Positions 3,321 to 32,856 of a DNA stretch of 41,112 nucleotides are shown here, one piece after another. Below the pieces are notes generated by a model, which worked only from the letters and a program-made list of their open reading frames with translations, had not been told where the DNA came from and made no database searches. The DNA comes from an uncultured archaeon (GTDB lineage Archaea; Iainarchaeota; Iainarchaeia; Iainarchaeales; JAAZKV01): the NCBI GenBank assembly GCA_964402905.1, contig CAYODU010000003.1, positions 1-41,112 of the forward strand. The letters run 5' to 3'. Every line of letters starts with the position of its first letter. Positions within the stretch are counted from its first letter, which is position 1. Position numbers and translations under genes: made by a program.

Positions 3321-3641
3321 CTAACAGATTTTGTCTCTTAAACAATTTTTTCTCACATGTTCTTCAATTAGTTCAAAAATTGGTTTATCTCCTTTTTTGA
3401 ATATATTGCTTTGGAGATAGTACTCTCTTTCTTTTCCTTTTTTTCTGTAATCTACAAAACGGCATTTTCTTAGTTGTTGGAGTGAGTGGCTTACTGCGCT
3501 TTGTTCTCTGTTTAGCTTTTCACATATCTCTTGTACTGTAAGGGGTTTTTGTTTTAGCAATTCAATTATTTTTACTCTTAGTTCGTTGCCCAGAACATTT
3601 AGGCATTTGTATGGCGATTCAAGTCCGATAGTAGTTTTCAT
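3321..3641 (-). CDS. ArsR/SmtB-family winged-HTH transcriptional regulator
   Basis: 106 aa. The stretch LGNELRVKIIELLKQKPLTVQEICEKLNREQSAVSHSLQQLRK is typical of an ArsR HTH. First gene of the nifS-iscU string. Confidence 0.75.
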   Translation of the reverse strand: MKTTIGLESPYKCLNVLGNELRVKIIELLKQKPLTVQEICEKLNREQSAVSHSLQQLRKCRFVDYRKKGKEREYYLQSNIFKKGDKPIFELIEEHVRKNCLRDKIC

Positions 3642-3726: not shown

Positions 3727-4191
3727 TTAAAGAGTTTCTGAACTAGTTTTATTTTCTTCATTGTTTTCAGAAAGAGAGTTTTCTTCAGCAGCAATAACTA
3801 ATGAATCAGCTTCTTCGTTTAATTGTTCTTCAGCTTCGTTATTTTCCTCAGCCTTAGCGATTTCTTTTCCACCATTACCTTTGAATGTAATGGTTTTTGT
3901 TATCCCGTCTTCTCCCCAAAGATATGTCATTGAAACAGGTGTGTCTTTAATCAAAGTAATTTTGTAGTTTCCAGGGTTTCCAGTTTTCAGCGTAAACAAC
4001 TTTGAGTAGGTAATGGTTGCGCTACCATTGCCCAGTTTAACTAGTTGATAAATGTTTGAATCATTCCCATTTCCAATTATTCTATCAAAGCCCTCTCCTT
4101 CTTCCACTTCAAAAACATCATCAGTAATGTCCTTAGTAAAAGGAGGCTTCCATTTAGACTTAATACTTCTAACTTCAAAAACTGCTTTCAT
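3727..4191 (-). CDS. hypothetical protein with acidic Glu/Asn-rich C-terminal tail
   Basis: Long ORF divergent from nurA, with ATG at 4191 (GTG at 4200 is an alternative). No domain recognised. Confidence 0.5.
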   Translation of the reverse strand: MKAVFEVRSIKSKWKPPFTKDITDDVFEVEEGEGFDRIIGNGNDSNIYQLVKLGNGSATITYSKLFTLKTGNPGNYKITLIKDTPVSMTYLWGEDGITKTITFKGNGGKEIAKAEENNEAEEQLNEEADSLVIAAEENSLSENNEENKTSSETL

Positions 4192-4276
4192 TTGGCTCAC
4201 TTTCCACTAGATAGAATGGATGTTTTCTTTAAAAATGTTTCTTGTTTTTGCTTTTTTTGAATCTAAAAGATTGTTT

Positions 4277-4294
4277 GTTCGGCACAGGACCAAG
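4277..4294 (+). promoter_or_regulatory. GTTCGGCAC box (GTTCGGCACAGGACCAAG) upstream of nurA
   Basis: A G+C-rich 9-mer in AT-rich spacer, shared with the herA and rad50 upstream regions. A TATA-like TTTTATAT lies about 15 nt downstream (4302-4309). Confidence 0.55.
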
Positions 4295-4331
4295 AATATT
4301 CTTTTATATGCAACTAAACTCACCTTATTTC

Positions 4332-5408
4332 ATGTATTTTGACAACTTTCTTGATAGTGTTTTTGCCACAGTTTCACAAAAACACTCTTTTCATGAAAGT
4401 ATTACAAAAGAGCTTCTTCCAATAAAATCAGTTTTGTCCCAAAATGGCACTGAAAAAATAGTCGTTTCAGTAAATAAAAGAGTTTTTTCTGGAATAATTG
4501 CCGGCGTTGATTCGGGTTTTGTTTCAAAGAGACTTTCATTTATTGATATTGTATTAATTCGTGTTGCCGGAGCGATTTTTAATTATGAAAATAATATTCT
4601 TGGAAAAGCAGAGTACTATCCAAATGCTTTTTCTTTGCCCGAACCGATTCTACTAAAAGCCGCTCTGGAAAAAGATGAGGAACAGCAAAGTGTTTCTCTT
4701 GAACGCTTGAAAAAAGAAGTGTGTAATTCAATTGAAATAATAGAAAAATTTAAACCCAAATATCTTTTTATTGATGGTTCAATTGTTCCCCAGTACCAGG
4801 ACAAACCTCGTTCTGATTCAGTAATAAATAATGATTATAATTCAGTAGTTGTTTTATTTCAAAAGATGTATTCTCTTGCAGAAAAAAATTCTTGTACTCT
4901 AATTTCTTGTGTCGAAGATTCAAGAGGGACCCGTTTTATTCAATTATTAAGAGAAAAAATTCTTTCTAAAGGGGAAAATCAAAAATCAGAAAAGTTAAAG
5001 GGTTCAATTGATGCGGCTTTCCTTGATTATTTTTTACTTCCAAAAGAAAGAACTTTTTGTTTTCCATATACTTCAAGCACAATAACGCACCCAATTTTGA
5101 AAGATTATGAAAAAAGGTGGGCTGAAAACATTTTTGTTTTTTATTTAAAAGTTTCAGAATTTGATAAGCCCCTAAGAGTAGAATTTATTTCTGGTGCGGG
5201 TAATTTACATGAAAAAGCTGATGAGATAGCTTCAATTGTTTTTTCTCTCTCTTCTTTACACAAAGAATATTCTTATCCAAGTGTTTTGATTGAAGCGGAT
5301 TTGCGTGCTCGCTTAAATGAAGATGATATAAGTATTGTTTATGATAAACTCATTGACAAGCTTGGGCCAAAAATGAGATTGCGAAGAAACTCTCGTCCCT
5401 TTAAATAG
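4332..5408 (+). CDS. nurA: NurA-like 5'-3' nuclease (HerA partner)
   Basis: Contains GVDSGF and FIDGSIVPQ, resembling the NurA acidic catalytic motifs, and herA lies nearby. Start is uncertain: ATG 4332 sits about 25 nt after the TATA-like element, while ATG 4308 and TTG 4242 are also in frame. Confidence 0.6.
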   Translation: MYFDNFLDSVFATVSQKHSFHESITKELLPIKSVLSQNGTEKIVVSVNKRVFSGIIAGVDSGFVSKRLSFIDIVLIRVAGAIFNYENNILGKAEYYPNAFSLPEPILLKAALEKDEEQQSVSLERLKKEVCNSIEIIEKFKPKYLFIDGSIVPQYQDKPRSDSVINNDYNSVVVLFQKMYSLAEKNSCTLISCVEDSRGTRFIQLLREKILSKGENQKSEKLKGSIDAAFLDYFLLPKERTFCFPYTSSTITHPILKDYEKRWAENIFVFYLKVSEFDKPLRVEFISGAGNLHEKADEIASIVFSLSSLHKEYSYPSVLIEADLRARLNEDDISIVYDKLIDKLGPKMRLRRNSRPFK

Positions 5409-5466
5409 CTCTATTAAATTCAAATTCATGCGAAGGTTTAAGTTTAATTAATGCGCATATTTTTCT

Positions 5467-6138
5467 ATGATTAAAGTAATTGTTTTTGATTTGTGGAGAA
5501 CACTTATCCCAGCGACCATAGATTTTGTGCACCTTATTTCTTTATTAAAAAAAGAGGGTATTGAAAAAGAAGATTTTATCGAACGCTATGAAAAAGCAAC
5601 TCAACTAAAAAAATATAAAAATTTTGAGGAACTTAGAAAAGATTTTTTTAGTGCTTTCAAAGAAGAATCAAATAGTGATTTGGAACAAGAGCTGTACGAA
5701 ATCTACTCAAACCGCTTTGATAAGATACACTTTTTTTCTGATGTAATTTCTGTTCTGGAAAAATTAAAAAAACAAAAGTACAAAATTGCATTGCTTTCAA
5801 ACACAGAAAGCCTTATGGCAAAAGAAATAGAAAAAAAGCTTAAATTCAAAAATTATTTTGACTATTTAGCATATAGTTTTGAAATAGGTTTTATTAAACC
5901 CGATAAAAGAGCGTTTTCTGTTATTGTAAAAAAATTCAAAGTAAAACCAAAAGAAGTTTTAATGGTTGGGGATTCTCTAAGGTGTGATGTTGCTGGGGCA
6001 ATAACTGTTGGGTTTAATAGTTGTCTAATCAATCGCACGGGCACTGTACTTGATTATGCTGATGTTAAACCAGATTTTGAAATTAAATCCTTAAAAGAAA
6101 TCTTTGAAATTTTGGGTGTGTTAAATGCAAAATCCTAA
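5467..6138 (+). CDS. HAD-superfamily hydrolase
   Basis: Motif I VIVFDLWRTL (DxWxT variant lacking the second Asp), motif II LLSNT, motif III/IV K...VGDSLRCD. Confidence 0.7.
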   Translation: MIKVIVFDLWRTLIPATIDFVHLISLLKKEGIEKEDFIERYEKATQLKKYKNFEELRKDFFSAFKEESNSDLEQELYEIYSNRFDKIHFFSDVISVLEKLKKQKYKIALLSNTESLMAKEIEKKLKFKNYFDYLAYSFEIGFIKPDKRAFSVIVKKFKVKPKEVLMVGDSLRCDVAGAITVGFNSCLINRTGTVLDYADVKPDFEIKSLKEIFEILGVLNAKS

Positions 6139-6298
6139 AGAAGAAATGATTGATGTCAGAAAAAGTAGCGAGGCACTTTTGGCTAAGTCAAAACAAGCTT
6201 TGTTTAATGGCATTACTTTGAAAAGAGCTCTTGACAGAATTTTGTGTAGAAAACAAAGAGAAGCCCGTCTTAAAAGAATTCCTTTTCCCAAGAAGTAA
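6125..6298 (+). CDS. small basic hypothetical protein (57 aa), not in the ORF track
   Basis: My translation is MQNPKEEMIDVRKSSEALLAKSKQALFNGITLKRALDRILCRKQREARLKRIPFPKK*. Its ATG overlaps the last 14 nt of the HAD gene, and it fills an otherwise empty 165-nt gap. Confidence 0.3.
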   Translation: MQNPKEEMIDVRKSSEALLAKSKQALFNGITLKRALDRILCRKQREARLKRIPFPKK

Positions 6299-6303
6299 TT
6301 TTT

Positions 6304-7035
6304 ATGGATTTTAAAAATATTTCTAGTAAAAATAAATTTTTGCGCATTCAGTTAATTGATTTTTTTCGCGGTTTAGCTCTTTGTGCAATGTTTATTTTCC
6401 ACTTTTTTTGGAACTTGAATTATTTTGGAATAATTTCTGTGAGTTTGTATTCCGGCTTTTTCGGTTTGTTTCAAAAATCAATTCTTTTTTCTTTCATCTT
6501 TATTTCAGGAATATCTTTTTTTCTTTTCATTCAAAAAAATGGTTTTTCAAAAAAACTTTTAAATCACTTAACTATGTTGTTTGTAGCTTCTCTTGGAATA
6601 ACTATTTTTACTTTTTTGTTATTCCCGAGCCGATTCATTTATTTTGGTGTTATCCACCTGATTATTTTTTCTTGGATTGCCGGAATTGTTTTTGTTAGGT
6701 TCCCTAAAATATCTTTGTGCTCGGGCGTATTTGTTATCTTTGTATCTTTGTTTTTTAACTTACCAAGAATTAGCGCAGGCATATTTTTCTGGCTTGGTTT
6801 TGGTTCTCCTTTACCAGCCCTTGATTTTGTTCCTGTTATTCCCTGGTTTGGTGTTTTTTTAATTGGATTATTTTTTGGAAAATTAGTAATGAAAAATAAA
6901 GCCTTTTTGTCAAAAGTAGTTCTTCCAAAAAAGCTTTCTTTTATTTCAAGTATTGGAAAAAAATCCCTGTTTTTTTATTTGGGCCACCAATTTGTTCTTT
7001 TTCCTTTAGCTTTCTTAATTTATTTCTTTTTTTAG
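6304..7035 (+). CDS. polytopic membrane protein, DUF1624 / heparan-glucosaminide N-acetyltransferase-like
   Basis: N-terminal IQLIDFFRGLALCAMFIFHF resembles the DUF1624 signature. Several hydrophobic helices follow. Confidence 0.55.
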   Translation: MDFKNISSKNKFLRIQLIDFFRGLALCAMFIFHFFWNLNYFGIISVSLYSGFFGLFQKSILFSFIFISGISFFLFIQKNGFSKKLLNHLTMLFVASLGITIFTFLLFPSRFIYFGVIHLIIFSWIAGIVFVRFPKISLCSGVFVIFVSLFFNLPRISAGIFFWLGFGSPLPALDFVPVIPWFGVFLIGLFFGKLVMKNKAFLSKVVLPKKLSFISSIGKKSLFFYLGHQFVLFPLAFLIYFFF

Positions 7036-7052
7036 TTCGGCACGGTACTAAG
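7035..7052 (+). promoter_or_regulatory. GTTCGGCAC box (GTTCGGCACGGTACTAAG) upstream of herA
   Basis: Same 9-mer as at nurA and rad50. A TATA-like TTATTTAAAA (7057-7066) follows, and the herA ATG is at 7097. Confidence 0.55.
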
Positions 7053-7096
7053 TAATTATTTAAAAGCAACTTAACACTTTTTTGTTATTGATATTT

Positions 7097-8617
7097 ATGC
7101 CTGAATTAAATGAGCAGTTAGGAACAGTTGTTTCTACTATGGAAGGGCCTTCTCCAAGTAGAGTAGATTTTGTTGTTAATAATGGAAAAGCTCACAAAGG
7201 AATGTTTGTCGAATTAGAGTATAGCGAAGGCACCATGATTTGCATGGTGGAAGAACTGGTTAAAACAAATCGTTATTTTGAGAGGCCTGATTCAGTAAAA
7301 GCGATTGGCCCAGAGCTTGAAAAAAATTTTCCAATTGCAGATTGGGAATTCCTTTTGGGAAAAGCAAAACCCCTTGGGGTATTTCAAAACAATCGGGTTC
7401 TTCGTTCAACTTTTCCTCCTTCTCCGGGAACAAAAGTTTTTATTGCAAAAAAAGAGCATATAAAAAAGTTTTTGGGTTTAGAAGAAAAGGGACTTGATAT
7501 TGGTGAAATACAATTCCATGAAATTCCACTTAAGTTAAATCTTTCAAAACTATTACAAAAGCACTTGGCAGTTCTTGCAATGAGCGGAGCCGGGAAATCA
7601 TATTTTATTAGTGTTCTAATAGAAGAAATTCTTTCGCGCACAAAAGAACAAGGACAAATAGCTTTAGTTGTTTTTGATACTCACGGGGAGTACACTTGTT
7701 TTGGCGAATCAGCAAAAGAAGGTTTTATGGATTTTTCTTCTAAAACAAGAATAGTTGATGCTAACAAAATAAAAATTGCTTTATCAAATGTTTCTCCAAC
7801 ACTAATTTTTTCTTTGGCTTCTTCTCTAACCCCGGTGCAAAAAAGAGAGTTTGTTAAAATCATTTCAAAATTAAAATCCGAAATGAAATCTGGTGTTGGT
7901 CCATTTGATCTTAACTCTGTGAGAGCAGAAGCGGCTGAGCTCGAACCAAAAACAAGTGCTTCAATAATAAGTGCGGTTGATGAATTAGAACAATTGAATT
8001 TGTTTTCAAAAGTTGATTCGCCAAGTATTTTTGATTTAGTTGTACCTGGGCATTTAGTTGCAATAGATTTGAATGGAATTATTTCAGATAAAAAAAAGCA
8101 GTTAATAGTAGCTTATTTTTCAAATAAATTATTTAATGCGCGTCGCCAGAAAAAAATTGCCCCATTTGCATTGCTTTTAGAAGAAGCCCACAATTTTATT
8201 CCCGAATCAACTGCTGCAGACCATGCTTTAGCCAGAAGTACTTTGCGGACAATTGCAAGAGAGGGAAGAAAATTTGGTTCTGCTTTAATAGTTGTTTCTC
8301 AGCGCCCAAAGCGCCTTGACACTACAACCCTTGCTAATTGCAACACAAACATTATTTTGCGTATAACCAATCCATATGATTTGGATCACATAAAACAGAG
8401 TAGTGAGGGGCTTGATGCGGGAAGTATTAATATGATTTCTTCGCTAAGAGTTGGAGAAGCCCTTGTTGTGGGAGAAGCTGTTAGTGCCCCAACTTTTTTC
8501 AAAGTGCGTTTACGTAAATCCCAGCCAAGTAGACACGAAACAACTCTTGAAGAATCTGCAAAAAGGTTCCAATTAGATGTCATAAAAAAAGATGAAGAAA
8601 CAAATGCTTTTTTATAA
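7097..8617 (+). CDS. herA: HerA-type hexameric DNA helicase/translocase (FtsK-HerA superfamily)
   Basis: Walker A LAMSGAGKSY, Walker B LLLEEAHNFIP, and VSQRPKRLD..ILRITNPYD. The N-terminal beta-barrel-like region starts MPELNEQLGTVV. Confidence 0.85.
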   Translation: MPELNEQLGTVVSTMEGPSPSRVDFVVNNGKAHKGMFVELEYSEGTMICMVEELVKTNRYFERPDSVKAIGPELEKNFPIADWEFLLGKAKPLGVFQNNRVLRSTFPPSPGTKVFIAKKEHIKKFLGLEEKGLDIGEIQFHEIPLKLNLSKLLQKHLAVLAMSGAGKSYFISVLIEEILSRTKEQGQIALVVFDTHGEYTCFGESAKEGFMDFSSKTRIVDANKIKIALSNVSPTLIFSLASSLTPVQKREFVKIISKLKSEMKSGVGPFDLNSVRAEAAELEPKTSASIISAVDELEQLNLFSKVDSPSIFDLVVPGHLVAIDLNGIISDKKKQLIVAYFSNKLFNARRQKKIAPFALLLEEAHNFIPESTAADHALARSTLRTIAREGRKFGSALIVVSQRPKRLDTTTLANCNTNIILRITNPYDLDHIKQSSEGLDAGSINMISSLRVGEALVVGEAVSAPTFFKVRLRKSQPSRHETTLEESAKRFQLDVIKKDEETNAFL

Positions 8618-8630
8618 AATTTATTTCACC

Positions 8631-8649
8631 ACCGGCACGGTAGTCTAAG
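8631..8649 (+). promoter_or_regulatory. variant box (ACCGGCACGGTAGTCTAAG) upstream of the polB-like gene
   Basis: Shares CGGCACGGTA..CTAAG with the herA box. TATA-like TTTATAAA lies at 8655-8662 and the ATG at 8685. Confidence 0.5.
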
Positions 8650-8684
8650 TTTGTTTATAAATTACCAAAACTTCAATTTAGTTC

Positions 8685-10166
8685 ATGCTCCAACACGCAT
8701 ATCTCACAAAGGTTAGTTTCAACCCAGATAAAAAAGAGATTTTGGTGGAGTTTAGTAATAAAGAAACACGGATAGTAAAGCGCTATCCCTTTTTTCCTTT
8801 TTTTGTCCTTCCAAAAGAAATGGGAAAAGAAAAAATAACTGAGTTGTTGCTCGGTTTGGGTTTCAAAAAATTCAGTGTTACTGAGGATGAGAATCTTCAT
8901 ATCTCTGCAGCACACTTTTTTGAATTAAAACAAATGGCTTTTGCTATTGCAAAAGCAACAGATAAAATGCCAGTTGTTGTTGAACCCGAACGTGCATTTT
9001 TAATACAACAAAAATGGACTTATTTTGATTCTTTTTCTTTCGAAAATAATGTTCTAGAAAAAATTTCATCTGAAAAAGAGATTGGTTTTTTCATCACCCC
9101 TGAAATACCATTCAATGAGGCCCTGAGTTTAAATGAAGAAGAAACATTGTTTCTTGTAAAGCAAAGCGCTTTTTCTTCCTTGCTTTTGCTTCCACTAAAC
9201 AAAGTTCCTTCTTCTCCTCAGGAAAAAACAGAAGTTTTTCTTGAAAACATTTTTTTCAAAAAGGGTTTTACTGTTTCTTGGAAAAAAAGTGATTCTCTTT
9301 TTAATCCAAAGCAGTTTGCGCCCACTTGTTCTTTTGATTCTTTTTCAACAATAGATTTTTCTCTTGTGTGGGTACAATTACTTTCAAAAAACTTTTTTAA
9401 TATTGGGCACGATACTCTTAATTGTGATTGTTGTAAACCAATAAAGTTAAATGATAAAAATGTATTGCCTTCTTCACGGATAGAAATTGTTTTTAATGAA
9501 GATTATTTTTTTTATGAATCCTCTTCAGATGCTTTTGCACTTAATTTTCATAAAGAAAATGATTTGAAGGAAAAACGTCTTGAAAAAAAGAAAGAGTTTT
9601 TCATGAAGATGTATCCAGTTGGGCCTTTTTTTAGTGGTCAAAAAGAAAAAGTTCCCCTAAGTGATGCAAAAATGCTTTTGGATACTGGGAAGGTTTCACT
9701 TGAAAAAAATCATTTGTTACAATGGTTTTGTACAAAAAAAGAAAGTTTTCTCTCTGAGGAAATAAGGCAAATAAATACAATGCTTTTTAATTCAAAACAA
9801 ATTATTGAATCTGTTCCAGAGCTTTTTTTATCCACAAAAAAGGTTGGTGCCTATTATACTTTTTTCTTTTCAACAGCCCTGAGTGAAATTGCTTCAGAAA
9901 TACCTTTTCAGTTAACAAATAACTTTTCTCGTTTTTCTTCTTATGGAATCGCTAAAGCGATTTTGTCTATACAAGAAGAAACGCTTTTTCAGTTCAAGAA
10001 GTTTTCTGAGAAAAAAGGTTATAGAATATTGTTCTCTGATAGAAAAAATGTTTTTGTTAAAGGCTTTTCTTCGCTTGCTTTGGCCAAGGGTTTTTCAAAA
10101 GAGCTTTCTCTCCCACAACCAATAATAAAGGGATTTGCAAAGAAAACAAGGGTTCTTGTACAATAA
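8685..10166 (+). CDS. truncated, probably catalytically inactive family-B DNA polymerase homologue
   Basis: 493 aa. The N-terminus (YLTKVSFNPDKKEILVEF..RYPFFPFFVL) resembles the PolB N-terminal domain. FSTIDFSLVWVQLLSKNFFNIGHDTLNCDCCK resembles the motif A region (DFxSLYPSII..HNxSPDTLN..C). RQINTMLFNSKQ resembles a degenerate motif B (KxxxNSxYG). KGYRILFSDRKNVFVKG aligns with motif C, with DTD replaced by SDRKN. I saw no Exo I-III motifs and no thumb-length C-terminus. Confidence 0.6.
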   Translation: MLQHAYLTKVSFNPDKKEILVEFSNKETRIVKRYPFFPFFVLPKEMGKEKITELLLGLGFKKFSVTEDENLHISAAHFFELKQMAFAIAKATDKMPVVVEPERAFLIQQKWTYFDSFSFENNVLEKISSEKEIGFFITPEIPFNEALSLNEEETLFLVKQSAFSSLLLLPLNKVPSSPQEKTEVFLENIFFKKGFTVSWKKSDSLFNPKQFAPTCSFDSFSTIDFSLVWVQLLSKNFFNIGHDTLNCDCCKPIKLNDKNVLPSSRIEIVFNEDYFFYESSSDAFALNFHKENDLKEKRLEKKKEFFMKMYPVGPFFSGQKEKVPLSDAKMLLDTGKVSLEKNHLLQWFCTKKESFLSEEIRQINTMLFNSKQIIESVPELFLSTKKVGAYYTFFFSTALSEIASEIPFQLTNNFSRFSSYGIAKAILSIQEETLFQFKKFSEKKGYRILFSDRKNVFVKGFSSLALAKGFSKELSLPQPIIKGFAKKTRVLVQ

Positions 10167-10276
10167 TATAAACAAAAAATATGACAAACAATTATGTATA
10201 AGACATTCTTTGTTTTTGTTGCGTTAAGGCTACTTTTTTAAAGCTTCTTATTGAATTATTTCTTATTGGTGAGCAA

Positions 10277-10483
10277 ATGTCAAAACTAACTAGATTTGAA
10301 TTAACTCGTGTTTTAAGTGCAAGGGCACTGCAGTTGTCTCTTGGGGCACCGCCACTAGTAAAAGGCACTAAGGATCTTTCAATGCTTGGGGCTGCAGAAA
10401 AAGAGTACTTGGGAAAAGTTTTGCCTATGAGTGTTCTTAGAAAATATCCAAATGGAAAATTAGTGAGAGTAGAATTAGCTTAG
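10277..10483 (+). CDS. rpoK: DNA-directed RNA polymerase subunit K (Rpo6/omega-like)
   Basis: LTRFELTRVLSARALQLSLGAPPLV is the conserved RpoK/Rpb6 core. A GGTGAG SD-like element precedes the ATG. Confidence 0.9.
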   Translation: MSKLTRFELTRVLSARALQLSLGAPPLVKGTKDLSMLGAAEKEYLGKVLPMSVLRKYPNGKLVRVELA

Positions 10484-10491
10484 GTGTATTA

Positions 10492-10695
10492 ATGGGTAAA
10501 TCAGTTTCTAAGGGATTAAAATACAGGGCAGAAGTTATGTTGCGAGAGTTCCCTGAAAAATTTGGAAAAGATTTTGAAAAAAATAAGTTAGCACTAAATA
10601 CTTTTGAATTAGGTTTATCAAAAACAAATAGAAATGTTGTTGCTGGATTTATAATTCGTCTTGCAAAAAGAAAAGACAAAGAAGCTACTAAGTAA
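10492..10695 (+). CDS. rps17e: 30S ribosomal protein S17e
   Basis: MGK..K..A..ML.EFPEKFGKDFEKNK...SK..RN.VAGFI..L matches the pattern I recall for archaeal S17e. Confidence 0.8.
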   Translation: MGKSVSKGLKYRAEVMLREFPEKFGKDFEKNKLALNTFELGLSKTNRNVVAGFIIRLAKRKDKEATK

Positions 10696-10721
10696 ATTCT
10701 TTTTTTAATCCTATAACTATT

Positions 10722-12770
10722 TTAATAATTACTTATCTGTTCGCTTTTTGTTGCTTCATCTAAATCCTTGTTTCTTTGTAGTAAATAAAGATTGCTTGTT
10801 GCTGCGCTTTCAAGTTCTTTTTCGTGTGTAATAACAAATATTTGTGTTACTAGTTTTGGTAAATCATCTCGTAACATAGAACTTAATCTTTGGATTGCAT
10901 TAGAATCAAGATTGTGTGTTGGCTCATCCAGTATAAGCATTGATAGTTGTTTTGTGAGCACAAGAGAAAAAGCAATTCTTATACATAGTGCAGCGGCACT
11001 TCTTTCTCCACCAGAAAGAATTCCTTCTACCCTAATCCAAGAATTATTTCTTGTTAGTACTTGTAAATCATAACCGTTTTCCACAACGCACAATCTGGCG
11101 TCTACAAAATCTTTGTATGGATAAATATTGTTCCAGATATTTGACATTGCTTCATTAATTGTTTCAAGGAGTGCTTGTCTTAGTTCTACTTGTGTAGCCA
11201 TTAGGCAATTTCCAAATACTCCAAGTTTCTTTGCAGCCAGATCAGTTCGCTTTATTTCCTCTTCCATTTCAGTAATGCTCTTTTTTATTAAACATATTTT
11301 TTCAAGTGTTTGACGATGGCTTTCTATTAGTTCCTTTGAAGATTTGGTTTTTGCCAGAGCTAATTCTTTTTTTGTTTTTAATTCAAAAAAATCTTTTCGT
11401 GCTTTGCTAAGTTTCTCAGAATCAAAACCAACTTCTTTTATTTCTTTTTCAATAATGGGTAATTGTTTTTGTATTTCTAAAAGTTGTTTTTTCTTCGCAT
11501 CTATACTCTTAGCTTGTTTTTCATCGGCTTGTAGTGAGAAAAGTTCTCTTTTTTTCTCATCAACAATTTTTCTTATTTCCTCAGTTTCTTTTTCTAATAA
11601 AGTAATTTGTTTTTTTAAGTCGTTTATTTTTTTATCAGTTTCTTTTTCTTCTTCAGTAATTTGCTTTATTTCTTTTTGAGCTTTTTCAATATAATCTTTT
11701 TTGTGTTCCTCAGTAAGCTTTTGTTTGCATTTGGGGCAATTTCCATGAAGAAAAGAAATTTCTTTTATTTCTTTTTCCAAGCTACTTTTTCTATAACTAA
11801 TTACTTTCCCTTCTTCAGAAATTACTTTGAGATTTGACTCAATTTTTTCGCACTCTTTTTCTTTTCTGTTTTGTTCTTCAACAGCCAGGGTAGTTTCTTT
11901 TTTTATTTTATCAATTTCTTTTATTATTTCTTCTAGATTAATTTTTTGATTTTCTTTAACATCTTTTTCAATATTTTCTAAAAGAGCTTTATTTGAAATA
12001 ATTTCTTCTTTTAATTTTAAATGCTTTTTTTCTTTTTGTTCAAAAAGAAGATATTCTTTTTCTTTTTCTATAATTTCTTTTCCAATGCCCAAACTTATTT
12101 CTTCTAATTCTTTGAGCATTTGTTCTTCTTCTTTTATCTTTGCAACTATTTTTTCTTCTTCGTGCGACTTAATATTTTCCTTTTGTCTTAATACACTCTC
12201 ATTTTTATCTTTGTTTTCCTTGTTGAACTGATTTTGTAGTGTCAAAGCGTTTTTTCTCGCATTCTCATATTTTTCAAGTTCAAGTAATTCATCAAACTTT
12301 TTTTTTCTTTCACCAGGGCTTAATTTGAGAAAAAAATCTATTTCATTTTGTTCTGCATAAACAGCTCGACTAAATAATTCGTAACTTAACCCAAGTATCA
12401 ATTCAATTTTTTCGTTAACATCTTTTTGTTTTGGCCCCGCTATTAATCTGTTTTCTTTGTAGAGTTTTGCTTCGTTTGTTGAATCAGCATTTATTATTCT
12501 TTCTACGCGATACTTGTCTTCTCCGTGACTAAAAAAAAGTGTTGTCTCTGCTTTTGAACAAGGATTAGGTTTATTCATTATTATTTCGTTTAAAGTAACT
12601 TGCTTACTTTTTAATTGGGGGAAAGTGCCAAATAAGGAGTAGCTAATTGCATTAACTATGGAGCTTTTTCCAGAACCCATTACTCCAACAATAACATTAG
12701 TTCCTTTACCAAAAGTAAAAGTGCTTTCGTGGTGTGTCCGCCAGTTTTTGATTTCCAGTGACTCAATCAT
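10722..12770 (-). CDS. rad50: Rad50 DSB-repair ATPase (SMC-like, with zinc hook)
   Basis: N-terminus MIESLEIKNWRTH, Walker A GVMGSGKSS, long Glu/Lys coiled coils, central CPKC zinc hook, signature LSGGERSAAAL and Walker B MLILDEPTHNLD. The start is set at ATG 12770 rather than the track start 12794. Confidence 0.9.
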   Translation of the reverse strand: MIESLEIKNWRTHHESTFTFGKGTNVIVGVMGSGKSSIVNAISYSLFGTFPQLKSKQVTLNEIIMNKPNPCSKAETTLFFSHGEDKYRVERIINADSTNEAKLYKENRLIAGPKQKDVNEKIELILGLSYELFSRAVYAEQNEIDFFLKLSPGERKKKFDELLELEKYENARKNALTLQNQFNKENKDKNESVLRQKENIKSHEEEKIVAKIKEEEQMLKELEEISLGIGKEIIEKEKEYLLFEQKEKKHLKLKEEIISNKALLENIEKDVKENQKINLEEIIKEIDKIKKETTLAVEEQNRKEKECEKIESNLKVISEEGKVISYRKSSLEKEIKEISFLHGNCPKCKQKLTEEHKKDYIEKAQKEIKQITEEEKETDKKINDLKKQITLLEKETEEIRKIVDEKKRELFSLQADEKQAKSIDAKKKQLLEIQKQLPIIEKEIKEVGFDSEKLSKARKDFFELKTKKELALAKTKSSKELIESHRQTLEKICLIKKSITEMEEEIKRTDLAAKKLGVFGNCLMATQVELRQALLETINEAMSNIWNNIYPYKDFVDARLCVVENGYDLQVLTRNNSWIRVEGILSGGERSAAALCIRIAFSLVLTKQLSMLILDEPTHNLDSNAIQRLSSMLRDDLPKLVTQIFVITHEKELESAATSNLYLLQRNKDLDEATKSEQISNY

Positions 12771-12814
12771 TAATATGCCTTGATTGAAAAACAATAAAAA
12801 GAGTGTGAGGGGGG

Positions 12815-12824
12815 CGTGCCGAAC
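12815..12824 (-). promoter_or_regulatory. GTTCGGCACG box upstream of rad50
   Basis: The minus strand reads GTTCGGCACGCCCCCCTCACACTCTTTTTATTG....ATG. The box is followed after 14 nt by a TATA-like TTTTTATTG about 25-30 nt before the rad50 ATG. Confidence 0.55.
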
Positions 12825-15369: not shown

Positions 15370-16905
15370 ATGGATTTTACCGAGCTTCGTTTAAAGAAAA
15401 TCAGCGAGAGTTCTGTGGGAACGGTTTATGCTGGCTTGGCTTATAATTTTTATGAAGTAAAGCAAAATCCTCTTTCAAAAGATGAGGGACGCTTTGCAAT
15501 TTTTTTGGAGCGTTTAATACAACGAAAAGCCCCTTTTTCAGATTTAAAATCATTTAAAGAAATTCCTTCTTCTTTCGCTGATGATTTTAGAGAAGAAGTT
15601 GTTTCTATTGTGGAAATAAATGGCTTGCTTGAAAGAATTCCTCCAAAAAAAGTTTTTGTTGATTTAATAGAAGCAATGATTCGAATTATTTCAAAAATTT
15701 CTTTTATATCTGATAAATCCCTTTTTGCTGAAACAGTTCTCCATAATTCAGTGGGTCTAAAACAATTGTCTTTTTTTTCTCTTGATGATTCACTAGAAGA
15801 ACTCATGATTAATGCGCTTGATGATGTTTTTGTTTTTCACAGGGAACTGGGGGTATGTAAAACAGATTTGGTTTTGGATGAGAAAATTTTTGAAAACATT
15901 ATTCAAAGAGTTGCTTTTAGTGTGGGAAAAAAATTTAATGCAAATGAGCCTTTGCTTGATGCACGGCTTCCCGATGGGAGTAGAGTAAATGCAACTTTTA
16001 GTGAGGTTTCTCCAAAAGGGAGTTCTCTTACAATACGAAAATTCTCGCCAATTCCTCTAACGGTACTTGATTTGATTGAAAATAATACGATTTCAAGTGA
16101 AGCTGCAGCTTTTTTATGGGTGATGGTTGAGGGCTTTGGTTTGAATCCAAAAAATGTTCTTATTGTTGGGGGAACAGCTTCCGGAAAAACAACTTTTCTA
16201 AATATTTTATCAAATTTTATTCGTTTTAATGAAAGAATAATAACTATTGAGGATACTCTTGAAGTTTCTTTGCTTGATAGAAAGAATTGGGTTGCACTTG
16301 AAGCAAAGCATTCTATTGAAAATGAAGTTACAATGGATTCTTTGTTAAAAAATTCTTTGAGAATGCGTCCTGATAGAATAGTTGTTGGAGAAGTCAGGGG
16401 CAGTGAGGCTCTTACTCTCTTTACGGCTATGGATAACGGGCATTCAGGTTGTCTTGGAACAATCCATGCTAACAATGCAAGGGAAACAATCATAAAACTA
16501 CAGGAAAAACCTTTTTCTGTCCCAGAATCAATGCTCCCATTGGTTGATTTGATCGTTGTGATGCAGAGGATTTATTCAAAAGAAAATGGAATGCAGAGAA
16601 GAGTTGTTGAAATAACAGAGCTTTCAAGAATGGACAAAAAAGTTTTGCTTGCAAATGTTTTTGATTTTGATGAATCCAGCGGTGCTCTTAAGCGAACAGA
16701 TTTGCCAAGTCATGTAATTGAGGAGTTTGCTCAACAAAATTCTCTTTCAAAGAATGAAGTAAAAAAAGAAATTGAAACACGGCGACTTATACTTAAATGG
16801 CTAATTGAAAAGAATGTTAGAAAGCCCCTTGAAGTACTAGAATTTTTGCAGAGCTATTATTATGATCCCAAAAAAGTGTTGTCAATGATTTATGGTTCAG
16901 AGTGA
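15370..16905 (+). CDS. type IV filament / secretion ATPase (ArlI/FlaI-VirB11-GspE family), orphan paralogue
   Basis: Walker A GGTASGKTTFLN, ITIEDTLE, RMRPDRIVVGEVRGSEA, GHSGCLGTIHAN. It is a clear paralogue of the 32857..34527 product. Confidence 0.85.
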   Translation: MDFTELRLKKISESSVGTVYAGLAYNFYEVKQNPLSKDEGRFAIFLERLIQRKAPFSDLKSFKEIPSSFADDFREEVVSIVEINGLLERIPPKKVFVDLIEAMIRIISKISFISDKSLFAETVLHNSVGLKQLSFFSLDDSLEELMINALDDVFVFHRELGVCKTDLVLDEKIFENIIQRVAFSVGKKFNANEPLLDARLPDGSRVNATFSEVSPKGSSLTIRKFSPIPLTVLDLIENNTISSEAAAFLWVMVEGFGLNPKNVLIVGGTASGKTTFLNILSNFIRFNERIITIEDTLEVSLLDRKNWVALEAKHSIENEVTMDSLLKNSLRMRPDRIVVGEVRGSEALTLFTAMDNGHSGCLGTIHANNARETIIKLQEKPFSVPESMLPLVDLIVVMQRIYSKENGMQRRVVEITELSRMDKKVLLANVFDFDESSGALKRTDLPSHVIEEFAQQNSLSKNEVKKEIETRRLILKWLIEKNVRKPLEVLEFLQSYYYDPKKVLSMIYGSE

Positions 16906-19991: not shown

Positions 19992-20085
19992 CAAATAGTG
20001 TGCCTGCCAGCGTTTCCAAAAAGTTAAACATTAAGTTAGCGTATTATTAATTTATTTGTTTTTCATTTTAGTAATAGGTGTTTTG

Positions 20086-20445
20086 ATGTTTGAATTAATT
20101 TTGCTTGCAATAATAATTATTCTTGTAATTATCTTATTCATTGTTATTGCAAGGCTTTTTTCTCAGAGAGATGAACTGGCTTCTTTGCATTACTCAAAGC
20201 GTTCCCAGAGTGTTAAATATGGTCAGCTCACAGAACAATGGATTCCTTTTTCAGAGCAGTTCCCATATAACTCACAAAACTTTAGATTTATAGGAAAACC
20301 AATTGATGGCATTTCTTTTGAAGATGATAAAATTGTTTTTATTGAGTTTAAAACAAATACAAGTTCTTTAAGCGAGATTCAGAAAAAGATAAAACAACTT
20401 GTCGAAGAAAAGAAAGTAGAGTGGTTTGAGTTAAAAATTAAATAA
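20086..20445 (+). CDS. membrane-anchored endonuclease related to archaeal Holliday junction resolvase (COG4741-like)
   Basis: N-terminal TM helix, then GQLTEQWIPF..FPYN..NFRFIGKPIDGISFEDDKIVFIEFKT. The ATG at 20086 is preceded by AGGTG. Confidence 0.55.
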   Translation: MFELILLAIIIILVIILFIVIARLFSQRDELASLHYSKRSQSVKYGQLTEQWIPFSEQFPYNSQNFRFIGKPIDGISFEDDKIVFIEFKTNTSSLSEIQKKIKQLVEEKKVEWFELKIK

Positions 20446-27384: not shown

Positions 27385-27492
27385 GCAAAAAAAGTTTTTG
27401 CCTTCATTAAAAAAAGCTTTTTTGTTTTTCGTTTTGCGTCGAAAGGAAATCTTCTGTTTTTCTTAAAAATAGGGTTTTCTTTACTTTTTTAC

Positions 27493-27825
27493 CTAATTTA
27501 TCTGTATTGTTGGATTTAGAAAAGATGTTGCGCGGTTAATTTTTTCTTCTATTGGTTCTAGAGTAAAATCAGTGTTTGTTAGTGTGTTTGGTTCTGTTTG
27601 TACTTTTATTATTGTTGCTGAAGAGTTTTTTGCCAGAGAAATATTTTTTATTAAAACATTGTCCATTGTATTTGTTTGGTAAACAAGATCTTCTCTGACT
27701 ATTGTGTATGCAATCGTTGCTTCGTGTGTTTGTAGATATAAATTTGTAATATATATTCCGGAAGTTATTATTATTATAAACAAAAAAAGGCTTTCAAAAG
27801 CTACTTGTCCCCTCAAATAAAACAC
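27493..27825 (-). CDS. class III signal peptide (type IV pilin-like) protein
   Basis: MFYLRG/QVAFESLFLFIIIITSG, with Gln at +1 and Glu at +5. Confidence 0.65.
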   Translation of the reverse strand: MFYLRGQVAFESLFLFIIIITSGIYITNLYLQTHEATIAYTIVREDLVYQTNTMDNVLIKNISLAKNSSATIIKVQTEPNTLTNTDFTLEPIEEKINRATSFLNPTIQIN

Positions 27826-27835
27826 CTTCTAATAT

Positions 27836-28294
27836 CTAACTTTTTTCACTAATATTTATTTCATCAGATTGTTTTTCAACAATAACTGTTCTTTGTCCGC
27901 TTACAAGTGGAAAATTACAGTTTACTATGATTCCATCATTAATTGAGATGTTTTTGTCACAAGAATTATTTTTACATAAATTCATTTCAGGGTTTTTAGT
28001 TAAAACATTTATTTTTGTTATAAAACCTATTGTGCCGTCATTGTAGCAACCAACAAATGAATTTTCAGGTATAAATAATTGCAGAGTTTCTTTTGAACTA
28101 TTTCCAAGAAGTGATATTTTGTTAACAGAATTAACTATTTTCTGTGTTTCATTATTTGCAAGAGTAATGTTTTGTATGTCCGTTATAGTGCTTTGTGTGC
28201 TTTCAATAAGGGGTTTTGTTACAGAAAAAAGATATACTACTACAATGAGAATTATGAAAATAAATTCTATTGCTGCCTGTCCGCGATTATTCAT
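27836..28294 (-). CDS. class III signal peptide (type IV pilin-like) protein
   Basis: Trimmed to ATG 28294: MNNRG/QAAIEFIFIILIVVVYLF, with Gln at +1 and Glu at +5. Confidence 0.7.
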   Translation of the reverse strand: MNNRGQAAIEFIFIILIVVVYLFSVTKPLIESTQSTITDIQNITLANNETQKIVNSVNKISLLGNSSKETLQLFIPENSFVGCYNDGTIGFITKINVLTKNPEMNLCKNNSCDKNISINDGIIVNCNFPLVSGQRTVIVEKQSDEINISEKS

Positions 28295-28296
28295 TT

Positions 28297-29406
28297 TTAC
28301 AGTCCCAGAATAAACCATACTGCATCCCCCAATATAATACATAGCAAATATCCTATAAGCATTGTTGGAACAAAGGGCATTGATTCTTTTATCATTATCG
28401 TTTTGGGTATAATCCCTTTTTTTGCTAGTAGTTTAATTTCTTTTATTTCTTCTTTTATCAGTCCGCGCGCTTTATTTGCAGAAACAATCTCTTTTTCTCT
28501 GCTAAAAAGCTCTTTTATCTTTCCTTTTTTTGCAAGTGAAATTATTTTTTGTATCGAAAAATCTTTTTCAATAATTTTTTTTCCTTTCCAAACAAGTGTC
28601 TTTGAAGGAATCATTCCTTCTTCGAGTTTACTTAAGCTTATTTTTGTTGATAGGAGCGGTCTTAGAGAAAATAATAATTTAATTACTCCATAAACCACCA
28701 CAAGCATTATTGCTGAGCCAACAAAGCTTTGCAATGCAATTGAATAATTCAGTATAAGTGCAACTACAAAAACTGCAATTGTAAAAAACTTTTTTGTATT
28801 TTTTGTGAAGCCCCATGCAAAAAGTAAGGGTATTGTAATAAGGCTTGTTACATTAAAGTAATTTAGTATTGTGTAACAGCTTGAAGCAAACAAAGCTACG
28901 TGTGTAGCTTGGACACTCCTTTTCTTTAAATCTGCCGTAACTTGTTTCCTAAATTCAGGATTTTTTTTGAGTTTGTATAGAACCATTATCAGTCCATATG
29001 GAAAAAAAGCAAATAACGAGTAAATGAAAAGAGTTAGTGGAAAAATTGGTATGTTAATTGAAGAAAAAATTCCTATATTTAATAGTGCTGGAGTAAATGG
29101 GTTTAGTGCTCCAAGCCCCATAAATAATTTTACATCTCCACCTGCAAAGACACCAGCTTTCCACATTATCCAACCAAAGAAAAAACCTGTGCATAAACCA
29201 AAGAAAGAGAACATTATTGGATAGAATGCTTGGGCTGATAAACCCTCAGTTAATATTATGTAAACTGTTTGCGCACCGAATATTAATAACCCAGCTATTG
29301 CTAAGCCAAAGTTAAGTTTGTTTGGAACAATTCTTTCTTTTAGATCAGTATATGTTGCACCAATCAATCCGGCAATTGAAAATAGTATTGCAATGTAAAA
29401 AAACAT
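28297..29406 (-). CDS. archaeal prepilin/preflagellin peptidase (A24 family, PibD/FlaK/EppA-like)
   Basis: First catalytic Asp context GATYTDLKERIVPN and second FAGGDVKLFMGLGA. Polytopic, with a Lys-rich soluble insert and a final TM at the C-terminus. Confidence 0.8.
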   Translation of the reverse strand: MFFYIAILFSIAGLIGATYTDLKERIVPNKLNFGLAIAGLLIFGAQTVYIILTEGLSAQAFYPIMFSFFGLCTGFFFGWIMWKAGVFAGGDVKLFMGLGALNPFTPALLNIGIFSSINIPIFPLTLFIYSLFAFFPYGLIMVLYKLKKNPEFRKQVTADLKKRSVQATHVALFASSCYTILNYFNVTSLITIPLLFAWGFTKNTKKFFTIAVFVVALILNYSIALQSFVGSAIMLVVVYGVIKLLFSLRPLLSTKISLSKLEEGMIPSKTLVWKGKKIIEKDFSIQKIISLAKKGKIKELFSREKEIVSANKARGLIKEEIKEIKLLAKKGIIPKTIMIKESMPFVPTMLIGYLLCIILGDAVWFILGL

Positions 29407-29475
29407 GTTATTAGAATAAGGTTTTTGTGTTTAAAAAATAATCTGTGAAAGGATTTTTTATATTTTTGTCTGTTC

Positions 29476-29661
29476 TTATTGCAAAATGTTTTCTATTACC
29501 CTTGCGCGCTGTGTAAGGATATCGGCTTGTGCTTCTAGTGCTAATTGTCTTAGTGTTTCAATTACTGTTGCTGCCCCAATTGCGAGCATTATTGCAAACA
29601 CGGCTGTTAACAAGTACTCAAAGGATACTTGGGCCTTTTCCTCTGAAAATATTTTTTCCAT
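29476..29661 (-). CDS. short Flp-like type IV pilin (61 aa)
   Basis: MEKIFSEEKA/QVSFEYLLTAVFAIMLAIGAA. Confidence 0.7.
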   Translation of the reverse strand: MEKIFSEEKAQVSFEYLLTAVFAIMLAIGAATVIETLRQLALEAQADILTQRARVIENILQ

Positions 29662-29683
29662 TCAATCACTTTTCTCTAATTAA

Positions 29684-30007
29684 TTAAGAGCAACCCCATT
29701 TCTCTTTTAGAAAATTATTTGTGTTAGTGGTGCAACAATAAGTGTCTCCATCACCATTTTCACCTGAACCTGTTGCAAAATAATCATTTAAATTTTGATT
29801 ATAGCAAGCACAATCTTTAGTATTAGAATCTAGTAAATCACATATGTATTCAAAGGTTCCAGTATTTCCTGTGTCTTGTGCGGGTCCTGCTGCCGAAGTT
29901 AAAAAATTCATCACTATTAGAACAACTACAACAGCTGCCACAAGCAAAAGCAAGTATTCTATTGCTCCTTGCCCTCTAATTGATTTATTCATTTTCTTCT
30001 TTTTCAT
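29684..30007 (-). CDS. type IV pilin with Cys-rich C-terminal domain
   Basis: ..NKSIRG/QGAIEYLLLLVAAVVVVLIV, with six Cys in the C-terminal 60 aa. Confidence 0.7.
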   Translation of the reverse strand: MKKKKMNKSIRGQGAIEYLLLLVAAVVVVLIVMNFLTSAAGPAQDTGNTGTFEYICDLLDSNTKDCACYNQNLNDYFATGSGENGDGDTYCCTTNTNNFLKEKWGCS

Positions 30008-30031
30008 CTTATTCTCACTACTATTATTCCT

Positions 30032-30056
30032 TAGCAGTATTTAAAACTTGTTTTTT
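30032..30056 (-). promoter_or_regulatory. duplicated pilin promoter element, copy A
   Basis: The plus strand reads TAGCAGTATTTAAAACTTGTTTTTT; the minus strand contains TATA-like TTTTAAATA about 35 nt upstream of ATG 30007. It differs from copy B at 1 of 25 positions. Confidence 0.5.
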
Positions 30057-30107
30057 CTTTAGTGCACAAAAATAGTTTTAGAATAGATTTATTTTCTTTA
30101 AATGAAA

Positions 30108-30299
30108 TTAAGGTGTTGTTTTTTGTCCAGTGTATACACTCCAAAGATTTTGCCAAGCATCAGTAACATTGTCTTGAACTTTATCAGTATTTGCGGTGTT
30201 TAGTAGTCCTGTCATGGCGATGATTACGATTACTACTACTAGTATTGCTGCGCCTATGATTAGTAGGTATTCTATTGCTCCTTGTGCTTTTTCTTCCAT
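30108..30299 (-). CDS. short Flp-like type IV pilin, paralogue 2 (63 aa from MEEKAQ)
   Basis: MEEKA/QGAIEYLLIIGAAILVVVIVIIAMTGLLNTA. Its N-terminal 36 codons are nucleotide-identical to those of the 30444..30629 gene. Confidence 0.8.
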   Translation of the reverse strand: MEEKAQGAIEYLLIIGAAILVVVIVIIAMTGLLNTANTDKVQDNVTDAWQNLWSVYTGQKTTP

Positions 30300-30300
30300 T
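30192..30300. repeat. 109-nt perfect direct repeat, copy 1 (5' part of pilin gene)
   Basis: By eye, this stretch is identical to 30522..30630. Confidence 0.85.
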
Positions 30301-30370
30301 GATATCACTCAATTTTTCTAAAAATGTTTTCTTACTTTCTTTTTGTCTTGTTTTTAATATTACTATGTTC

Positions 30371-30395
30371 TAGCAGTATTTAAAACCTGTTTTTT
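30371..30395 (-). promoter_or_regulatory. duplicated pilin promoter element, copy B
   Basis: The plus strand reads TAGCAGTATTTAAAACCTGTTTTTT, upstream of the 30108..30299 pilin gene. Confidence 0.45.
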
Positions 30396-30414
30396 TGTTA
30401 GTAAAAAATAGTTT

Positions 30415-30436
30415 GAAAAGGCATTTCTGCCTTTTC
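30415..30436 (-). terminator. hairpin plus T-tract downstream of pilin gene 30444..30629
   Basis: Perfect 9-bp stem GAAAAGGCA/TGCCTTTTC with a 4-nt loop, starting 8 nt after the stop codon. On the minus strand it is followed by AAACTATTTTTT. Confidence 0.55.
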
Positions 30437-30443
30437 AATAAAA

Positions 30444-30629
30444 TTAAGCTGTTTGTTGCTCGTAAACATCATTAAGTCCAGTTTGTGCATCAGTTACATC
30501 AGTTGTTGCTTGTGTAGTGTCTGCGGTGTTTAGTAGTCCTGTCATGGCGATGATTACGATTACTACTACTAGTATTGCTGCGCCTATGATTAGTAGGTAT
30601 TCTATTGCTCCTTGTGCTTTTTCTTCCAT
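30444..30629 (-). CDS. short Flp-like type IV pilin, paralogue 1 (61 aa), candidate major pilin
   Basis: MEEKA/QGAIEYLLIIGAAILVVVIVIIAMTGLLNTA. A GGAGGG SD lies 6 nt upstream and a terminator hairpin lies downstream. Confidence 0.8.
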   Translation of the reverse strand: MEEKAQGAIEYLLIIGAAILVVVIVIIAMTGLLNTADTTQATTDVTDAQTGLNDVYEQQTA

Positions 30630-30630
30630 T
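30522..30630. repeat. 109-nt perfect direct repeat, copy 2
   Basis: Identical to 30192..30300, offset by 330 nt. Confidence 0.85.
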
Positions 30631-30683
30631 AATATCCCTCCATTTAATTGAGTTATCGTATTTGTATTACTCTCTTTTTATTT

Positions 30684-30836
30684 TTAATTGTTTGCATTTA
30701 CTCCGGCTTTTTCTTCTATTGCTTGGTTTACTGAGTTTGCTGCATTTTTAATTAGTATTGAAGCAACTGTAACTATTACAATTCCTCCAACAACTATAAG
30801 CAAGTACTCTAAATTTACTTGTGCTTTTTCTTCCAT
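30684..30836 (-). CDS. short Flp-like type IV pilin (50 aa), not in the ORF track
   Basis: My translation is MEEKA/QVNLEYLLIVVGGIVIVTVASILIKNAANSVNQAIEEKAGVNANN*. Its ATG shares one base with the TGA of the upstream platform gene (TGATG). Confidence 0.7.
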   Translation of the reverse strand: MEEKAQVNLEYLLIVVGGIVIVTVASILIKNAANSVNQAIEEKAGVNANN

Positions 30837-31750: not shown

Positions 31751-31753
31751 TCA

Positions 31754-32854: not shown

Positions 32855-32856
32855 TT

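Follow-up and report, generated by a model that had tools for sequence, protein, structure and literature searches.

A candidate promoter element shared by nurA, herA, rad50 and a PolB-like gene in one clade of Iainarchaeota

Archaeal activators typically bind directly upstream of the B recognition element (BRE), as was described for Ptr2 of Methanocaldococcus jannaschii, EarA at the fla promoter of Methanococcus, the factor of the Sulfolobus ara-box and TFB-RF1 of Pyrococcus, and archaeal repressors usually overlap the BRE/TATA region or the transcription start (PMC5512572). In the Sulfolobales, a damage element, the hexamer 5'-ANTTTC-3' within a consensus of ~20 bp at about -23 to -55 from the ATG, is bound by Orc1-2; nurA, rad50, mre11 and herA are upregulated after damage, and the promoters with the motif that were tested were those of ups, ced and tfb3 (PMC6061795). 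A herA-mre11-rad50-nurA cluster of thermophilic archaea goes back to Constantinesco et al. 2004, as cited in PMC6061795. In this study, which was based on a 41,112-base contig of an uncultured archaeon of the Iainarchaeota (CAYODU010000003.1; G+C ~32%), we analysed a short G+C-rich box that lies ahead of nurA, herA, rad50 and a gene for a 493-aa protein that resembles family-B DNA polymerases (the PolB-like gene); the entire 41-kb contig is referred to as the window. To our knowledge, the Iainarchaeota, which are known only from metagenomes, still lack any described transcription regulator, regulon or promoter element, and we know of no characterised regulator at all in DPANN archaea. Full-text literature searches returned nothing on promoter motifs of Iainarchaeota or on a motif shared by herA and nurA.

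Like the archaeal activator sites, the box stands at a fixed distance just upstream of the BRE/TATA region and is read in the sense orientation, and the BRE region that it adjoins may likewise be sub-optimal; its sequence is distinct, however, and it is common to five functionally linked genes rather than to a single operon, the fifth being a LAGLIDADG gene of related genomes. With the Orc1-2 element, it has in common that an archaeal motif recurs in promoters of repair-type genes, but that element is an A/T-rich hexamer, which the G+C-rich CCGGCA-N4-ACT of the box does not match. As in the thermophile cluster, the genes for HerA, NurA and Rad50 stand next to each other in a conserved region, whereas mre11 was absent from the loci examined, the PolB-like gene and a HAD-family gene are fixed members instead, and individual promoters share the box in place of one operon. 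Our comparison argues that the box is a lineage-specific, conserved and precisely positioned promoter element of DNA-end-processing genes, including the PolB-like gene. We consider it reasonably probable that this cis-regulatory element is the site of one sequence-specific transcription factor, most likely a positively acting one.

Direct reading of the four promoter regions confirmed the layout that had been proposed in a first-pass annotation of the window, i.e., a box, a TATA-like element and then the ATG, with the 9-mer GTTCGGCAC ahead of nurA, herA and rad50 and a variant of it ahead of the PolB-like gene. The scores below are those of a 14-column position weight matrix (PWM) that was built from relaxed-box sites found around herA in related genomes.

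4279-4292 (+): nurA box TCGGCACAGGACCA, 13.1 bits; its 9-mer begins at 4277
4302-4310 (+): nurA TATA element TTTTATATG, 9-10 nt past the box and ~29 nt ahead of the ATG at 4332
7037-7050 (+): herA box TCGGCACGGTACTA, 18.5 bits
7059-7066 (+): herA TATA element TTTAAAAG, 8 nt past the box; herA ATG at 7097
8632-8645 (+): box of the PolB-like gene CCGGCACGGTAGTC, 19.4 bits, the highest score of the window
8654-8661 (+): TATA element of the PolB-like gene TTTATAAA, 8 nt past the box and 31 nt ahead of the ATG at 8685
12809-12822 (-): rad50 box TCGGCACGCCCCCC in minus-strand reading, 15.5 bits
12793-12800 (-): rad50 TATA element TTTTTATT, 8 nt past the box and 30 nt ahead of the ATG at 12770

The 9-mer was found in four exact copies in the window, at 4277-4285 (+), 7035-7043 (+), 12816-12824 (-) and 37574-37582 (-), while 0.05 were expected from dinucleotide-preserving shuffles, none of which (0/100) reached four or more; permitting one mismatch added a single, unrelated site. 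The herA copy, which begins at 7035, shares bases with the stop codon of the preceding gene. When the whole window was scanned with the PWM, the herA, PolB-like and rad50 boxes took ranks 1-3 (15.5-19.4 bits) and the nurA box took rank 6, below two intragenic matches (14.3 and 13.3 bits); only the four promoter boxes are followed by a TATA element and a gene start. No repeat longer than the box is common to these promoters, their flanks are unrelated, and Rfam and tRNA scans of the window returned one tRNA-Arg only, with no Rfam family at the boxes. The promoters of nreA, of a Hjc-related gene (20056-20445) and of the gene for the RFC small subunit (38791-39756) were without a box. The fourth copy of the 9-mer does lie inside nreA and has no TATA element, as had been noted earlier, but we exclude it from the set, as it reaches 5.0 bits, shows an N5 instead of an N4 spacing and runs antisense through codons for P-S-A-E-L. 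Because the chance expectation for one more copy is 5%, it is best read as a coincidence and is probably a chance match.

Relatives of HerA were sought in contigs that represented one genome per species, which returned 80 loci whose HerA was at most 73% identical to that of the window. The nearest of these loci belong to metagenome-assembled genomes labelled Candidatus Iainarchaeum, Diapherotrites or 'archaeon', and the DNA of the relatives that was covered consisted of herA- and LAGLIDADG-centred neighbourhoods that reached at most 10 kb to either side of the matched gene. The exact 9-mer and TCGGCAC were nearly missing from the relatives, and an alignment of the herA flanks revealed a relaxed box, CCGGCA-N4-ACT, directly ahead of the TATA element in most of them. 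The conserved unit is therefore a relaxed 14-mer, YCGGCA-N4-ACTY, with CCGGCATGGCACTT as its best form, and not the 9-mer that had been taken as the unit at first; the copies of the 9-mer in the window are real, but its leading GTT is specific to the genome of the window. CCGGCATGGCACTT reads as tandem pentamers, CGGCA-YGGCA, and the box is without dyad symmetry. At the same distance from the TATA element, 33 related loci have the box ahead of orthologues of the four genes, and in the main clade this conservation extends over HerA proteins that are 63-73% identical to that of the window. A pattern scan of viral contigs matched 108 stretches, all of them by chance within unrelated DNA.

Within the window and 66 related loci (L001-L066; 1.05 Mb), 71 sites at which a box is followed by a TATA element and an open reading frame were detected, and 62 of them lie ahead of orthologues of the four genes (PolB-like 29, nurA 17, herA 12, rad50 4); five of the nine others precede LAGLIDADG genes. 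Conservation was best for the PolB-like orthologues, 29/44 of whose promoters have the box, and among the 33 promoters of nurA orthologues, 15 reached at least 11.5 bits and 21 at least 9 bits. Approximately 230 control promoters from nine neighbouring gene families (ArsR, CCA enzyme, EF1-beta, GTPase, HAD, NifS/U, PTH2 and a 157-aa gene) yielded one match at or above 11.5 bits and three at or above 9 bits. An unsupervised k-mer test gave CCGGCA as the top enriched 6-mer (33/189 target against 15/701 control promoters, p = 3e-13). Similar results were obtained with a non-circular matrix, which was trained only on the PolB-like promoters outside the window (consensus CCGGCATGGCACTT): at or above 10 bits, it matched 15/46 nurA and 11/62 herA promoters compared to 9/696 controls, and most of these nine were at G+C-rich distant loci and lacked a TATA element. 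In 39 AT-rich loci of Iainarchaeota/Diapherotrites (655 kb), 67 sites with box and TATA element were present, nearly all of them ahead of nurA, herA, rad50 or PolB-like orthologues, while first-order Markov simulations averaged 1.0 and never exceeded 3; together with the lack of any longer repeat that carries the box, this signifies that it is not a common or dispersed sequence. The spacing was equally rigid. Among the 83 PWM matches that had a TATA-like element within 45 nt, the gap between the end of the box and the TATA element was 8, 9 or 10 nt in 43, 18 and 9 cases, i.e., in 70/83, and the box was always in the sense orientation; 2% of random positions have a TATA element at a distance of 8-10 nt.

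The fifth gene with a box encodes a free-standing double-LAGLIDADG protein of ~280 aa (~250-310 aa across the family; 354 aa in one locus), which sits between rad50 and the CCA-enzyme gene in the genomes that have the box ahead of it. It is not encoded in the 41-kb window, and the following genes were located in relatives:

L007, 18400-19251: LAGLIDADG gene
L022, 14687-15433: LAGLIDADG gene
L037, 17061-17819: LAGLIDADG gene
L063, 8830-9627: LAGLIDADG gene
L189-L212: further LAGLIDADG loci

With the LAGLIDADG protein, which had no part in the training of any matrix, 28 independent metagenome loci (137 kb) were fetched. These contained 18 sites with box and TATA element, 16 of which were ahead of the LAGLIDADG gene and one ahead of rad50, and ~20/21 of the closest homologues had the box in its usual spacing to the TATA element. 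Members of this family occur widely among DPANN archaea (357 proteins at E < 1e-5), and no convincing box was found ahead of its genes in Nanoarchaeia, Aenigmarchaeota and one Diapherotrites genome of 58% G+C. Two catalytic-type motifs, CGIHAGDGY and RGxFDTDG, were each kept in at least 90% of 115 members, and the predicted model (pLDDT, i.e., predicted local distance difference test, 93) has a fold like those of I-DmoI, I-Tsp061I and intein endonucleases (Foldseek E 7e-11 to 6e-8). The protein looks like a domesticated homing endonuclease. The predicted regulon in this single Iainarchaeota (Diapherotrites, DPANN) clade would thus comprise nurA (possibly as nurA-HAD-herA), herA, the PolB-like gene, rad50 and, where encoded, the LAGLIDADG gene.

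The box also changed in a concerted manner between clades. In the main clade, YGGCA was present at the fixed distance from the TATA element in 60/111 target promoters and 4/385 controls (p = 3e-41). In the sister clade, in which HerA is 52-55% identical and G+C is 44-51%, YGGCG took the same distance in 24/49 target and 3/134 control promoters, and YGGCA was found in 1/49 and 0/134, respectively. This change of A to G at core position 6, which is concerted in all four promoters, points to one trans-acting factor: because the same base changed in all members of the set, a shared factor whose specificity has shifted would account for it, and independent drift would be hard-pressed to do so. The sister-clade promoters of the PolB-like gene (L028-L041, L052, L059 and L065) have a longer block ahead of the TATA element, CGGAACC(A/T)ACGGCGGTTTAC; this block represents the box in a lineage-specific form, in which core position 6 is G rather than A.

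Regarding the geometry of these promoters, the TATA elements of the control genes also lie 28-31 nt ahead of the ATG. Since the distance is equal in the control and box promoters, the TATA calls are sound and the mRNAs would be largely leaderless, which appears to be the rule in the genomes examined. If the usual archaeal TATA position is assumed, the box lies at about -54 to -41 from the transcription start, directly upstream of the BRE. In 106 control promoters, A made up ~50% of the 10 nt ahead of the TATA element; its share was lower in 79 target promoters, a difference that is suggestive rather than decisive. We favour a positively acting factor because of this less A-rich BRE region and the position of the box upstream of the BRE. 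Such a factor, once bound, would help TFB/TBP to load on promoters with a less A-rich BRE region, and the end-resection genes would be switched on together by one factor; the signal could be DNA damage or might be linked to replication and the cell cycle. The proposal of the first-pass annotation that a transcription-factor site just upstream of the BRE/TATA region defines a repair regulon is supported, as far as sequence comparison can do so, by the conservation, specificity and spacing described above.

Several observations weigh against this interpretation. The rad50 boxes are weaker, with 10/37 promoters of orthologues reaching at least 9 bits, and a box is lacking directly ahead of many herA genes, which are presumably read through from nurA-HAD. 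Activation is favoured over repression by two features, the position of the box and a modest difference in the BRE region. Moreover, no regulator candidate that is linked to the box was found near the box genes in the window and the neighbouring loci. The following gene is divergent from nurA:

3727-4200 (-): gene for a 157-aa protein that matches no family and whose C-terminal tail is acidic and of low complexity

It holds this position in ~28 loci, and its own promoter is without a box. As a regulator, the 157-aa protein was rejected, as it has no Pfam or NCBIfam match and no recognisable DNA-binding domain. An ArsR-type helix-turn-helix (HTH) protein (3321-3641) was also set aside; its gene adjoins nifS/nifU and may serve those genes instead. 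The sister-clade loci L032 and L039 encode, between herA and the PolB-like gene, a protein of ~320 aa whose C-terminus resembles sigma-70 region 4 or a LuxR-type HTH; this protein might act as a local regulator in the sister clade.

The evidence from conservation, specificity and spacing fits equally well with the box being the operator of a repressor, and bacterial damage regulons operate in this way. A factor at -54 to -41 would then hinder TFB/TBP or bend the DNA until it is released upon damage, and a protein bound to a box that ends 8-10 nt from the TATA element could reach the BRE. The bacterial SOS box and LexA offer the parallel of one short operator that is copied ahead of separately transcribed repair genes; however, the operator to which the LexA repressor binds is palindromic and overlaps the promoter, whereas the box described here is asymmetric and lies upstream of an archaeal core promoter, within a transcription system that resembles the eukaryotic one. 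Archaeal repressors usually overlap the BRE/TATA region or the start, sites upstream of the BRE are typical for activators (PMC5512572), and a BRE region that looks weaker than that of the controls fits with dependence on an activator. On balance, we regard a repressor as unlikely.

Quite unlikely, in our assessment, is an extended core-promoter element that is read by a specialised TFB or TBP paralogue. The rigid spacing of 8-10 nt is what contact with the pre-initiation complex would lead one to expect, and regulation directed by general factors is known in haloarchaea (PMC2396416). The BRE itself, however, is 6-7 bp long and abuts the TATA element, while the box is 8-10 bp away from it, so that the box is not a BRE and lies beyond the usual TFB footprint. 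Reduced DPANN genomes rarely hold several TFBs, and no TFB or TBP paralogue was found to be encoded in the window or in the loci examined.

The LAGLIDADG protein could itself be the reader of the box. One version of this idea, in which a factor derived from a homing endonuclease, in analogy to bacterial WhiA, reads the box, regulates its own gene and controls an end-processing module that lacks Mre11 and has a dead PolB-like partner of HerA, NurA and Rad50, is very unlikely. The idea that the box and its spacer (~22 bp) form the recognition site of this protein, as an autoregulating factor like WhiA, which is itself LAGLIDADG-derived, or as a promoter nickase, strikes us as about equally unlikely. 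The gene carries the box more consistently than the other members, as the count for its close homologues shows, and the predicted fold is monomeric and similar to those of I-DmoI and I-Tsp061I. Enzymes of the I-DmoI type read long asymmetric sites of ~20 bp, which matches the non-palindromic box, and the relative in L025 carries an extra HTH at its N-terminus and gives weak WhiA-type Pfam matches. On the other hand, the Asp motifs GDG and TDG, with their conservation of at least 90%, suggest a working nuclease, members of the family in Nanoarchaeia and Aenigmarchaeota do not have the box, and the window has the box without such a gene within its 41 kb.

Other readings would be chance, low complexity, a duplicated promoter or repeat remnant, or an RNA signal at the 3' end of the preceding gene. 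In their favour, one could cite the probable chance match in nreA and the fact that a gene of like orientation precedes three of the four boxes, which could then lie in a 3' untranslated region (UTR). These readings are so improbable that we consider them refuted as far as sequence analysis goes, given the excess of copies over expectation, the conservation at orthologous promoters despite the divergence of HerA, the nurA box in a divergent intergenic region that cannot be a 3' UTR, the orientation and distance locked to the downstream TATA element, and the lack of a longer shared repeat or an Rfam family.

The preferred reading of the box as the site of a positively acting factor concerns the following genes of the window, to which the NreA-like gene is added:

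4332-5408 (+): nurA (Pfam NurA, E 1.2e-11)
5467-6138 (+): HAD-family hydrolase gene (Pfam HAD)
7097-8617 (+): herA (Pfam DUF87/HerA central domain, E 1.8e-28)
8685-10166 (+): PolB-like gene, 493 aa (AlphaFold model and Foldseek)
10722-12770 (-): rad50 (Pfam AAA_23, SMC_N, Rad50_zn_hook and SbcC Walker B)
37054-38343: NreA-like gene (NCBIfam NreA model, E 1.5e-80, 271 bits; model cut-off 700 bits)

The start of herA is likely the ATG at 7097, the alternative TTG at 7082 being too near to the TATA element. Because 271 bits is far under the cut-off of the model, we call the product of nreA an NreA-like relative by sequence and not a confirmed equivalent. The gene order was kept across relatives (GTPase< PTH2< NifU< NifS< ArsR< 157aa< nurA> HAD> herA> 493aa> rad50< ... 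CCA<). The earlier statement that the four genes are not in one operon holds, but they are less dispersed than was implied: nurA, herA, the PolB-like gene and rad50 form one conserved neighbourhood. In nearly all relatives (most of L001-L038), the HAD gene keeps its place between nurA and herA; it lacks a box, with 0/24 promoters of its orthologues reaching 9 bits; it may be co-transcribed with nurA. A HAD phosphatase in an end-resection cluster could act in nucleotide or DNA-end chemistry or in DNA salvage. It had also been proposed to look for mre11 among the genes with a box; in the clusters inspected, i.e., that of the window and those of ~45 loci, no mre11 gene adjoined rad50, herA or nurA. 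The open reading frames between herA and the PolB-like gene that are found in some loci encode unrelated proteins in which inspection revealed no phosphoesterase motifs. Two small genes between the PolB-like gene and rad50 (10277-10483 and 10492-10695, both +) were assigned to Rpo6/RpoK and ribosomal protein S17e, names that rest on weak Pfam matches to the equivalent genes of L217. Elsewhere in the window (27400-34600 on the minus strand and 15370-16905 on the plus strand), there is a type IV pilus-like or archaellum-like cluster with two T2SSE ATPases, two T2SSF membrane proteins, an A24 prepilin peptidase and several small class III signal-peptide proteins.

The 493-aa protein had no match in Pfam or NCBIfam and no direct sequence match in the PDB. 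Its AlphaFold model (pLDDT 90.5), when compared with the PDB using Foldseek, retrieved Escherichia coli Pol II and Pyrococcus abyssi PolB (E 6e-10, ~10% identity, query-normalised TM-score ~0.5), and the profile of its family gave weak matches to PolB palm regions. The Asp of motif A was retained in 87% of the family members, while the DTD of motif C was lost, with no conserved acidic pair in its place (consensus GYRVL......AFVKG). Motif C (DTD) is required for polymerase activity. The model thus indicates a reduced family-B DNA-polymerase fold, and the protein is, judging by its sequence, probably polymerase-dead, in line with the earlier description of it as a degenerate PolB homologue. The family has four invariant Cys (C247, C249, C250 and C349). 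All of the 75 homologues listed (E up to 1e-5) were unnamed or 'hypothetical', and the taxon labels, where present, were Diapherotrites/Iainarchaeum. The absence of the motif C aspartates from a PolB fold recalls archaeal PolB2 and the C-terminal module of eukaryotic Pol epsilon (PMC7544198); in contrast to these, members of the 493-aa family are ~490-550 aa instead of ~750-800 aa long, are missed by Pfam/NCBIfam, have the Cys4 cluster, are known from Diapherotrites/Iainarchaeota only and are linked to herA, nurA and rad50. The survey of PolB proteins, which describes inactivated PolB groups, never mentions HerA and hence contains no such link (PMC7544198). In most of ~45 loci, the PolB-like gene is found beside herA, and the proposed tie to HerA, NurA and Rad50 is supported by this conserved cluster and by the family-B fold, in addition to the box, which is better conserved here than ahead of the other three genes.

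Small regulons defined by a common upstream site are a well-known concept, and the advance is incremental unless the trans-acting factor proves to be unusual. The box nevertheless provides a concrete handle, as a bait of ~14-22 bp could be used to pull down the factor. The loci also raise the question of what replaces Mre11, or where it is encoded, in these reduced genomes. By guilt by association, the shared site and the synteny would place two protein families, the PolB-like family and the DPANN-wide LAGLIDADG family, in DNA-end processing.

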